From Escherichia coli (lineage in GTDB: Bacteria; Pseudomonadota; Gammaproteobacteria; Enterobacterales; Enterobacteriaceae): a stretch of 64,000 nt of DNA. Below, piece after piece: positions 2,975-64,000 of this stretch. Under the pieces are notes generated by a model. It had not been told where the DNA came from, ran no database searches, and was given only the letters and a program-made list of their open reading frames with translations. Positions within the stretch are counted from its first letter, which is position 1. Every line of letters starts with the position of its first letter. The position numbers were made by a program, and so were the translations under genes. The DNA lies in the NCBI RefSeq assembly GCF_013315695.1, contig NZ_CP054353.1; one strand, written 5' to 3'.

Positions 2975-3022
2975 GAAAGGTAACTTCCCTCTCGCGGGGG
3001 AAGTTACCTTTCTTTTTTTTTT
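2975..3022 (+). terminator. Strong intrinsic terminator/attenuator hairpin 25 nt upstream of the ygcW start codon
   Basis: Perfect 15-bp stem GAAAGGTAACTTCCC / GGGAAGTTACCTTTC (2975-2989 and 2998-3012) with an 8-nt loop, followed by a run of 10 T (3013-3022). Upstream AGTTACC (2957-2963) could pair with GGTAACT in the 5' arm as an antiterminator. Confidence 0.5.
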
Positions 3023-3046
3023 GCCTTACGGAAATTGGAGCTAACT

Positions 3047-25001: not shown

Positions 25002-25213
25002 GTGTTCCCCGCGCCAGCGGGGATAAACCGGCTGGGTACTAGCCAGGGTGAAAGGAAGTCACGTGTTCCCCGCGCCAGCGGGGATAAACCGTCGACAATG
25101 GATAAGTTGACTTCAGGTCTGGGGAGTTCCCCGCGCTAGCGGGAATAAACCGTGCAGTACGCCTGATGACAAACCAGGCATCGGGAGTTCCCCCGCGTCA
25201 GCGGGGAACTCCC
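25002..25213 (+). CRISPR. Type I-E CRISPR array: 4 repeats (29 bp) and 3 spacers (32 bp)
   Basis: Repeats at 25002, 25063, 25124 and 25185 (61-bp period): GTGTTCCCCGCGCCAGCGGGGATAAACCG twice, then GAGTTCCCCGCGCTAGCGGGAATAAACCG, then a degenerate terminal repeat GAGTTCCCCCGCGTCAGCGGGGAACTCCC. Spacers: gctgggtactagccagggtgaaaggaagtcac; tcgacaatggataagttgacttcaggtctggg; tgcagtacgcctgatgacaaaccaggcatcgg. Confidence 0.9.
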
Positions 25214-25233
25214 AGCTCCCATTTTCAAACCCA

Positions 25234-41507: not shown

Positions 41508-42146
41508 TTAACTCCTTAATTCCGCAATTTCACCTGCGGTCAGATAACGGATCGGGCGGTCACCGAGAATAAAAATCAGCTTTGCCGTTTCCTCCAGCTC
41601 TTCCATATTGTTGGCGGCTTCTTGCAGGCTTTCACCGCAAACCACTGGGCCATGATTTGCCAGTAAAAAAGCCTGATTGTCTGCTGCCAGTTCCGCCAGA
41701 TCCTGTGCGATGCGTTTATCGCCCGGTCGGTAATAAGGCACCAGCGGGATATTTCCCATCCGCATCACCACGTATGGTGTGAACGGACGAATAACGTTGC
41801 TGCTGTCCAGCCCTTGCAGGCAGGAAAGCGCCGTCGACCATGTGCTGTGCAAATGCACCACCGCTTTACAGCGCGGATTGTTGCGATACAGCGCCAGATG
41901 AAAGAGCACCTCTTTCGAGGGTTTGTCACCACTTAACCATTCGCCATCCGCGGCGACTTTGGAAAGCCGCTGCGGATCGAGATTGCCCAGGCATGAACCT
42001 GTCGGTGTCGCCAGTAAATTCCCGTCAGGTAAAAGCAGCGACAGATTGCCAGCCGAACCGGTTGCATAGCCGCGCTGAAAGAATGAACTGGCAATCCGCG
42101 TCATCTCCTCTCGCAAAGACTGCTCTACTTTTGCGAAATCGCTCAT
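41508..42146 (-). CDS. ygbL: Class II aldolase/adducin-family protein (3-oxo-tetronate 4-phosphate decarboxylase type)
   Basis: 212-aa ORF in the class II aldolase family; overlaps the ygbK stop. Confidence 0.8.
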
Positions 42147-43405
42147 GATAAAAACTCTCTTTGGGCTCGTGAAAAAAAGGCTTCATCACCGAAGTTGCCA
42201 GATTTAAGGGCGAGTGAGACAGGCTTATCCAGTGCGTTTACCCACGGCACGCCAGGGGAAATGGTTGGGCCAATATGAAACCCTTTTATTCCCAGGCTCT
42301 GTGTGACTACGCCGGAGGTCTCACCGCCTGCGACAATAAAGCGTGTCACGCCTTCCGCTGCTAACCGCGCCGCTAGTTGAGAAAACAGTGTTTCTACTGC
42401 CTGACTGGCTTTTTGTGCACCGTATTGCTGTTGAATTGCTGCCAATGCGTCAGTGCTTGCGGTGGCAAAAACCAGTGGAGCAAGTACACTTTCCTGGCCC
42501 AGAACCCACTCTGCCAGTTCGTGTGCATAAGCGGCCAGAGTTTCAATTGAGAGGCAGCGTGCCACATCAACTTCACGGGCTGGTGCAATTTGACGGTAAT
42601 GTGCTACCTGGCGGTTGGTCATTTGAGAGCATGAACCGGAGAGCACTACGCCGCGCCCAGCGAGCGGATGCCCTGCTTTGCGAGCCTGGTTACCGTTTTC
42701 TTGCGCCCACTGCCGGGCAAGGCCAATCGCCAGACCAGAACCGCCCGTTACCAGTGGGGCATCGCGCAAGGCTTCTCCCTGAATTTCCAGATGGTATTCG
42801 GTCAGCGCATCAAGCACCGCGTAGCGGTAGCCCTCTTGCTGTAAGCGAGCCAGCTCTTGACGAACGGCATCCACACCTTGTTCGAAAACATGTGCCGAAA
42901 CGACGCCGCAGCGCCCTGTGGATTGCGCTTCAACCAGACGGGGAAGATAGCTGTCGGTCATGGGATTTACCGGGTGATGGCGCATCCCGGATTCGGCCAG
43001 CAGTTGATTCATTACGAACAAATACCCCTGATAAACCGTACGTCCGTTGACCGGCAGGGCCGGAGAGAAGACCGTAAACGGCGTGTCGAGAGCATCCATT
43101 AATGCATCGGTAACCGGGCCGATATTACCTTTCGCCGTACTGTCGAAAGTAGAGCAGTATTTGAAATAGATCTGTTTGCAACCTTGCTGTTGCAACCAGC
43201 TCAGAGCCGCCAGCGATTGCTGTGTGGCTTCAACCACCGGACAGGAACGCGTTTTCAGGCTGATCACCAGTGCGTCGATTGCTTCCGGCATTTTACCTGT
43301 TGGAACACCGTTAATTTGTACCGTTGGTAGACCGTTTTCCACCAGAAAACTGGCGATATCCGTCGCGCCGGTAAAATCATCGGCGATAACGCCAATCTTG
43401 ATCAT
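42143..43405 (-). CDS. ygbK: Four-carbon acid sugar kinase (3-oxo-tetronate kinase type)
   Basis: 420-aa ORF MIKIGVIADDFTGATD... (DUF1537/DUF2090-type kinase); ATGA overlap with ygbJ. Confidence 0.8.
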   Translation of the reverse strand: MIKIGVIADDFTGATDIASFLVENGLPTVQINGVPTGKMPEAIDALVISLKTRSCPVVEATQQSLAALSWLQQQGCKQIYFKYCSTFDSTAKGNIGPVTDALMDALDTPFTVFSPALPVNGRTVYQGYLFVMNQLLAESGMRHHPVNPMTDSYLPRLVEAQSTGRCGVVSAHVFEQGVDAVRQELARLQQEGYRYAVLDALTEYHLEIQGEALRDAPLVTGGSGLAIGLARQWAQENGNQARKAGHPLAGRGVVLSGSCSQMTNRQVAHYRQIAPAREVDVARCLSIETLAAYAHELAEWVLGQESVLAPLVFATASTDALAAIQQQYGAQKASQAVETLFSQLAARLAAEGVTRFIVAGGETSGVVTQSLGIKGFHIGPTISPGVPWVNALDKPVSLALKSGNFGDEAFFSRAQREFLS

Positions 43406-62763: not shown

Positions 62764-63170
62764 GTGAAAAGGTGGTGTTCAGTCAACTGAGCCGTAAATT
62801 TATTGATGAGAACGATGCCACGCCCGCCGAGGCGCAGCAGGTGGTCTATTACAGCCTGGCGATTGGTCACCACCTTGGGGTTATCGATTGCCTGGAAGCG
62901 GCGCTCACCTGCCCGTGGGATGAATATCTGGCATGGATTGCCACTCTGGAGGCGGGCAGCGAAGCCCGCCGCAAAATGGAAGGCGTGCCGAAATATGGTG
63001 AGATCGTCATCGACATTAACCATGTGCCGATGCTGGCCAACGCATTCGATAAAGCCCGGGCAGCGCAAACTTCGCAGCAGAAGGAATGGAGTACAATGCT
63101 GTTAAGTATGCTGCATGATATTCATCAGGAAAACGCCATCTATTTGATGGTGAGGAGACTGCGTGACTGA
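62760..63170 (+). CDS. hycH: Formate hydrogenlyase maturation protein HycH
   Basis: 136-aa ORF; overlaps neighbours on both sides. Confidence 0.85.
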
Positions 63171-63630
63171 CGTTTTACTTTGTGTTGGCAATAGCATGAT
63201 GGGCGATGATGGCGCAGGCCCGCTGCTGGCGGAAAAGTGCGCCGCCGCGCCGAAAGGTAACTGGGTGGTGATTGACGGCGGTAGCGCACCGGAAAACGAT
63301 ATCGTCGCCATCCGTGAACTGCGCCCGACACGACTGCTGATTGTCGACGCCACGGATATGGGGCTAAACCCCGGCGAGATCCGCATCATCGACCCGGATG
63401 ACATCGCCGAGATGTTTATGATGACTACCCATAACATGCCGCTGAACTACCTTATCGACCAGTTGAAAGAAGACATTGGCGAAGTGATTTTCCTCGGCAT
63501 CCAGCCGGATATCGTCGGCTTTTACTACCCGATGACCCAGCCGATTAAAGACGCGGTAGAAACCGTTTATCAACGGCTGGAAGGCTGGGAAGGGAATGGC
63601 GGCTTCGCGCAGTTAGCGGTGGAAGAATAA
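63163..63630 (+). CDS. hycI: Hydrogenase 3 maturation endopeptidase HycI
   Basis: 155-aa [28 protein letters not shown]..., HycI/HybD protease family. Confidence 0.9.
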   Translation: MTDVLLCVGNSMMGDDGAGPLLAEKCAAAPKGNWVVIDGGSAPENDIVAIRELRPTRLLIVDATDMGLNPGEIRIIDPDDIAEMFMMTTHNMPLNYLIDQLKEDIGEVIFLGIQPDIVGFYYPMTQPIKDAVETVYQRLEGWEGNGGFAQLAVEE

Positions 63631-64000
63631 TTCTTCATTAGGGAATTCAGGGAATTGAACATCAAAACAGGGATGTGCGCTTTTTATTGAGCTTAGTGCT
63701 GCCTGCACAGGCCACCAGCTTTACCGAATATCTGCCAATGAGTGACAGCGAATACGCGCAAAAGCGGGCGCTGAAACCTCTCTTAAACATGCCTTATGAT
63801 GCCGAGCAAACCTGGCATTTTAGAAAAGTGGGCGTTGCTGGCGTGACGCTTGAAAAGATGCCAAATGATGATAGTGAATGGCAATTGAACGGTAAAGATC
63901 GCGCCGGTAAATCCTGGTCTGTGCCTGTGGGGGGGGCTGCAAAATATGGCGGGTAATGCGCAACTTTACCGTGCCGATCTTGATCGTAACGGCATTCAGG

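Follow-up and report, generated by a model that had tools for sequence, protein, structure and literature searches.

The region downstream of hycI at the right end of the window (i.e., the whole analyzed stretch of 64,000 nucleotides from Escherichia coli) displays an ordinary strain polymorphism: it belongs to an annotated, uncharacterized accessory gene which is deleted in K-12 and frameshifted at a G tract in the present strain. This gene of approximately 753 bp between hycI and ascB is referred to as orfX in the following, and its first ~330 bp, on the same strand as hycI, are likely what positions 63631-64000 hold. The first-pass annotation had expected the convergent 3' end of ascB there and left the junction as a puzzle, which is settled insofar as the junction differs because K-12 carries a deletion scar. 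For this reason, K-12 synteny is a poor guide at hycI-ascB. The understanding of formate hydrogenlyase or asc remains unchanged; the residual novelty lies in an uncharacterized protein family and a variable poly-G tract. A conserved family under purifying selection, predicted to be exported and not covered by any Pfam model, is encoded at the hyc operon end of both Escherichia and Salmonella, and the G7 tract of its gene offers a natural case of a single substitution making a frameshift hotspot.

The left anchor of the junction is hycI, the last known gene of the hyc operon, which ends with TAA at 63628-63630 (Table 1). No C-terminus of a family 1 glycoside hydrolase (GH1) abuts it, as had been noted before: stops occur in all three minus-strand frames and none of these resembles a family-1 glycosidase. 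The minus-strand frame read from 64000 stops at 63794-63796, the one from 63999 stops at 63820-63822, and the one from 63998 opens with a stop and contains another at 63783-63785. The earlier description of one frame open from the window edge was therefore accurate in the position of its stop (63820-63822) and inaccurate in the count, as there are two such frames, both short. They were also considered as a gene and rejected, since in the intact copy of the related isolate AF3 they comprise at most 59 aa and run antisense to a frame under purifying selection. The reported plus-strand frame with a GTG start was recovered, and the remark that it lacks a convincing ribosome binding site proved justified: GGGA at 63670-63673, the sole purine-rich stretch, is just 1 nt away from the GTG, and neither GTG 63675 nor ATG 63673 has a good Shine-Dalgarno sequence. 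The product of this frame would consist of a signal peptide, MRFLLSLVLPAQA (63675-63713), approximately 75 mature residues and the out-of-frame tail AAKYGG. In the shifted frame beyond, the translation LQNMAGNAQLYRADLDRNGIQ... matches the AF3 protein exactly at residues 88-108 and includes the first FG-GAP-like calcium-loop motif, DLDRNGIQ, at 63976-63999. A search of 63400-64000 against Rfam gave no match at E<=1, so that no known small RNA explains the region. The spacer itself carries a tandem 9-bp repeat, namely AGGGAATTC at 63640-63648 followed by AGGGAATTG at 63649-63657; around this repeat, K-12 lacks ~15 bp. In GCA_974490385.1 (L022 717-1214), hycI is called with 165 aa versus 155, AGGTAA standing in place of GAATAA at the stop.

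Table 1. Features at the hycI junction of the window (positions refer to the whole stretch).
Feature	Position	Strand	Remark
hycI (hydrogenase 3 maturation peptidase)	63163..63630	+	From the ORF list; corresponds to annotated WP_000132960.1 in AF3, MSB1_4I and CFSAN061771
hycI-orfX spacer	63631..63674	+	Short; holds the tandem 9-bp repeat and the probable ancestral orfX start
GGGATGT, left copy of a 7-bp direct repeat	63670..63676	+	Site of the K-12-type 726-bp deletion
orfX 5' fragment	63675..63956	+	GTG start, 93 aa; TAA 63954-63956
T5 tract	63681..63685	+	T6 in most alleles; T5 common to AF3 and MSB1_4I
G8 homopolymer, frameshift site	63929..63936	+	G7 in the matched complete RefSeq genomes
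Shifted-frame orfX continuation, LQNMAGNAQLYRADLDRNGIQ...	63937..64000	+	Translation; cut by the window edge

Comparison with complete genomes places the fragment in an annotated gene. A megablast search with 63400-64000 matched 5425 of 5426 complete E. coli genomes and covered the whole query in 1463 of them; the stretch right of hycI alone was present in 2299 of the 5426 genomes (full-length in 1463). In K-12-like genomes, similarity ends ~20 nt past hycI. Hypothetical proteins are annotated between hycI and the convergent ascB in AF3 and MSB1_4I (WP_001571792.1, 250 aa) and in CFSAN061771 (WP_001330736.1, 251 aa). The order in these relatives is hycI, an orfX of 753-756 bp, a spacer of 68 bp and ascB, and in all three strains the end of ascB is found 866 bp past the stop of hycI, at ~0.5 kb beyond the window edge. 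The expectation of an AscB 3' end within ~160 bp of hycI thus failed, whereas the alternative raised with it, that the junction differs in this strain, was borne out, as a gene of 753-756 bp sits in this lineage where K-12 features a 158-bp spacer. The isolate AF3 is the closest relative, with ~8 SNPs versus the window in 64 kb. The extra G at 63936 is the sole intragenic indel between both, and all other genes align without frameshifts. Over the 370 bp right of hycI, which lies directly upstream, this G is the one difference from AF3. Likewise, the gene of WP_001571792.1, which occupies the same position between hycI and ascB, is identical to the window over 63675-64000 save for this one base, the window copy having G8 instead of G7. 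Because of the resulting frameshift, the window copy cannot encode a full protein of the WP_001571792.1 type; rather than an uninterrupted frame of ~250 codons, a stop is found at 63954-63956, and the remaining gene lies beyond the window. Neither WP_001571792.1 nor WP_001330736.1 carries a name or a family model. A literature search on both and on the hycI-ascB deletion returned nothing relevant, and neither did a search on STM2844, a presumed Salmonella locus tag.

Further differences from AF3 were observed elsewhere in the window. A poly-T at 3013-3023, located between ygcW and yqcE according to the AF3 coordinates, comprises T11 in the window and T9 in AF3. At the otnK/otnC junction (42146-42169), the 24-bp unit ATGATAAAAACTCTCTTTGGGCTC is single-copy in the window; AF3 carries 24 extra bases of ATGATAAAAACTCTCTTTGGGCTC there, interpreted as a tandem duplication. 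At 25002-25214, a small type I-E CRISPR array with 29-nt repeats at a spacing of 61-62 nt holds one repeat-spacer unit more in the window than in AF3 (alignment overlap of 90 nt versus 29 nt).

The plus-strand frame had been doubted, and its poor start-codon context and its length of just 93 codons in the window would suit a normal, longer hycI-ascB spacer with a chance ORF, in which nothing is encoded and the ascB 3' end lies close by. The idea that the gap is merely longer is contradicted by the relatives, in which the stretch is a protein-coding gene whose frame is conserved across genera; the frame of 93 codons represents the 5' part of this conserved gene, cut by the frameshift and by the window edge. 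As a protein of 250-270 aa, the frame is kept in E. coli, E. albertii, Salmonella and Klebsiella. Homologues share 87% identity in E. albertii, 70% in Salmonella (269 aa) and 60% in Klebsiella spallanzanii, and longer ones of 330-380 aa with an extra C-terminal domain occur in Leminorella, Pseudomonas and metagenomes. A profile search against 1.84 billion representatives retrieved 561 members of the family at E<=0.001 and 369 at E<=1e-10. The dN/dS ratios (Nei-Gojobori) amount to 0.14-0.18 (~0.16) versus Salmonella and Klebsiella and to 0.23-0.48 within E. coli, which indicates purifying selection on orfX that is relaxed within E. coli. Considering also the confident structure model obtained from the frame (see below) and the position of ascB in the closest relatives, a non-coding spacer is extremely unlikely; a frame conserved over 250-270 codons in three genera at such a dN/dS is, judged by these comparisons, a real gene rather than a chance ORF. 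Within E. coli, the orfX alleles are themselves divergent: they differ by up to 14% in protein and show a dS of 0.25-0.35, far above typical core genes (AF3 L003 3045-3797 versus L015, L016 and L017). The adjacent 3' end of hycI is only ~94% identical to K-12.

The location after hycI is common to Salmonella and K. spallanzanii and is accordingly regarded as ancestral. In Salmonella, the homologue begins 26 nt past hycI and precedes hydN; in K. spallanzanii, the order is hycI, symE, orfX, parDE, symE and ascBFG. The alignment to K-12, which had been proposed as a refutation, did not recover a normal ascB 3' end and spacer, and similarity to K-12 ends at ~63651. In the long allele, GGGATGT occurs twice at a distance of 726 bp (AF3 L003 3040 and 3766), the right copy being located beyond the window. 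K-12 features a single GGGATGT, next to which come the final 25 nt of orfX with its stop and a shared REP-like palindrome; homology resumes at the last 32 nt of orfX. Its spacer of 158 bp accordingly resembles the long allele in the hycI end with the first ~20 nt, in GGGATGT, in the 25 nt of the orfX 3' end and in the REP-like palindrome; it differs by the absence of 726 bp of orfX and of ~15 bp of the leader, and by an additional 35-bp REP copy before ascB. Since the junction of the O157-like strain ERL06-2442 corresponds to that of K-12 with a diverged tail, the 726-bp deletion is old. These alignments show that a deletion of 726 bp between the GGGATGT repeats removed orfX from K-12-like as well as O157-like E. 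coli. The opposite direction, an insertion of orfX in the lineage of the window, was rejected because Salmonella, Klebsiella and E. albertii possess orfX at this site and K-12 retains its last 32 nt.

Besides this deletion, the junction was remodeled in several other ways. In some strains, higBA or only the antitoxin gene higA comes after orfX; in one further state, an orfX stump of 61 aa precedes higA and a DUF4259-like gene, and the asc operon is deleted. The junction of E2348/69 carries higBA, DUF4259 and IS elements. Altogether, at least seven configurations were encountered (K-12 scar, O157-like scar, orfX alone, orfX with higBA, orfX with higA, truncated orfX without asc, and an IS-bearing form without orfX), and the hycI-ascB junction is a small integration/deletion hotspot. 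The higB/higA-like pair or the antitoxin alone was located at L016 2694-3421, L015 2694-3421, L017 2603-3022, L005 3467-4415 and L019 2901-5228, and some of these junctions additionally contain a DUF4259-like gene together with IS200/IS4 elements, the entire asc operon being lost in certain cases.

Two homopolymers differ among the orfX alleles, the first being the T5 tract. The probable ancestral start of orfX corresponds to TTG 63655-63657 in the window and is ATG in strain 190, giving MNIRTGMCAFLL...; products starting with MNIRTG comprise 254 aa in strain 190 and 257 aa in two further proteins (P0002, P0006). In the window, the frame from TTG 63655 meets a TGA after 11 codons. Both upstream starts (TTG 63655 and ATG 63673) run into TGA since one T is missing in T5. 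Consequently, annotators use GTG 63675, leading to a protein that begins with MRFLLSLVLPAQA... and to the annotated intact 250-aa CDS of AF3 and MSB1_4I. The exact T5/G7 protein of 250 aa was seen on 755 contigs, and T5 is therefore a real and common allele.

The second homopolymer difference concerns G8 in the window versus G7 in AF3, MSB1_4I and CFSAN061771. The additional base shifts the frame, and the ORF from GTG 63675 thus ends after 93 codons with AAKYGG and a stop at 63954-63956. The corresponding tract reads GGGGGTG in CEC15 and GGGTATG in strain 190, i.e., G7 arose by T>G. A lineage-specific T>G change would accordingly have created the G7 tract, and one further G would have shifted the orfX frame. 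The tract probably acts as a slippage hotspot and is demonstrably unstable, as other assemblies show G5, G6 and G8 at the same site. A downstream fragment of 160 aa (MAGNAQLY...NQL), the product of a broken frame, is called on at least 33 contigs, and six representative loci of this fragment feature G5 (T5 or T6 background), G6 and G8 (both on the T6 background). Near the 3' end of orfX, a second G run (AF3 L003 3760-3797) seems variable as well, judged by protein sequences only (proteins P0003 and P0014). Some orfX products end with ...KGMFLMG versus ...KGDVLDGVNQL, the ending that a loss of one of the five G in the AAAGGGGGATG run would produce.

Whether the eighth G is present in the strain at all has to be considered, since it might have been introduced by a sequencing or assembly error at the homopolymer, in which case the strain would carry the intact 250-aa T5/G7 allele of AF3 and MSB1_4I. 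Both small indels versus AF3 over 64 kb are found in homopolymers (3013-3023; 63929-63936), G8 with these flanks occurs in none of the 883 complete RefSeq genomes that a 76-bp query spanning the tract retrieved, and the exact 93-aa product of the window (T5 with G8) was not found among ~15 billion proteins. Nevertheless, two homopolymer indels per 64 kb are far below the level of error-prone assemblies from long reads only, and the other genes are not shifted. Moreover, independent short-read assemblies truly vary in the length of this tract (G5, G6, G8), which renders a genuine G8 unremarkable. An error is therefore regarded as rather unlikely, and G8 is probably a real slipped-strand mutation in a dispensable gene, with orfX being an inactive pseudogene in this strain. 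A transcriptional or ribosomal slippage that would restore the frame at G8 was also considered and set aside, as nothing points to it and poly-G is not a typical slippery site.

A coding homopolymer that differs in length between isolates is also what a phase-variable gene would display, and the range from G5 through G6 and G7 to G8 on T5 and T6 backgrounds, the predicted export of the product and the unusually deep allelic divergence for E. coli (dS of 0.25-0.35 between allele classes) are compatible with a contingency switch under which an exported protein would alternate frequently between ON and OFF, G8 being the OFF state. However, G7 is limited to one allele clade and derives from a single T>G change, the others having GGGGGTG or GGGTATG, and, in E. 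coli proficient in mismatch repair, seven or eight G are few for efficient switching. The off-frame variants appear to be shared inherited states, e.g., G6/T6 on 12 similar contigs, and orfX was lost outright in more than half of the strains, which fits decay rather than regulation. A phase-variation switch is thus very unlikely compared with a slipped-strand mutation in a decaying gene.

As to whether orfX belongs to the hyc operon, it shares the strand of hycI and is separated from it by 24-44 nt in E. coli and by 26 nt in Salmonella. A scan limited to consensus motifs detected neither a terminator-like nor a promoter-like plus-strand site between both genes in either organism. Co-transcription of orfX with hyc is plausible in view of the short gap and the missing terminator-like site. 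Across the family, an association with hydrogenase genes was not found, as the homologues of Leminorella, Pseudomonas and metagenomes are located in unrelated contexts. The linkage to hyc may hence be accidental. No conserved neighbor of the distant homologues was found in Leminorella, Pseudomonas or the metagenome bins, and guilt-by-association consequently gives no function.

Further indications were obtained from the protein itself. As read from the alignment, the E. coli, Salmonella and Klebsiella forms possess hydrophobic N-terminal segments ending with AxA (AQA, ALA), which suggests Sec signal peptides and export to the periplasm. The enterobacterial forms have two conserved Cys residues, and two loops follow the FG-GAP calcium-loop pattern (ADLDRNGIQDL and DLLDLQRNGHTQLLD), with D101, D103, N105 and D109 being invariant in a family alignment of 24 sequences. 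orfX would therefore encode a protein of ~25 kDa with a putative Sec-type signal peptide (AxA site) and two FG-GAP-like Asp/Asn calcium loops. An AlphaFold2 model based on the alignment of 24 sequences reached a pLDDT of 87.6 and a pTM of 0.85 and is all-beta; the predicted fold resembles an incomplete beta-propeller. Foldseek retrieved nothing for the model from the PDB at E<=0.001, and a profile search of PDB sequences had no match at E<=1. Most likely, the product is a periplasmic protein of a binding or inhibitor type, as far as localization and role can be predicted.

Proteins with FG-GAP and FG-GAP_3 repeats (PF01839, PF13517) are among the closest known systems. The E. coli protein itself had no match to Pfam (E<=1), NCBIfam or PADLOC models; among the 24 homologues, Pfam assigned FG-GAP_3 to 12 (best E 5.7e-6) and FG-GAP to eight, with one weak CarG-like match. 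As regards immunity proteins, no cognate effector gene was found beside orfX, the neighbors being hycI, ascB, hydN, toxin-antitoxin genes or unrelated genes. The most far-reaching combination, in which orfX is an unrecognized tenth gene of the hyc unit for a periplasmic FG-GAP-like inhibitor or binder of the PliI / X-Tfi class, toggled by poly-G in one clade and OFF rather than dead at G8, is highly improbable. As a candidate class for the orfX protein, the small periplasmic inhibitors of peptidoglycan hydrolases with a propeller-like topology can be named, i.e., PliI-Ah (3OD9), X-Tfi XAC2610 (4QTQ) and the related CarG (4O7J). The periplasmic export that characterizes PliI, X-Tfi and Tsi1-type proteins is likewise predicted by the N-termini of the orfX family.
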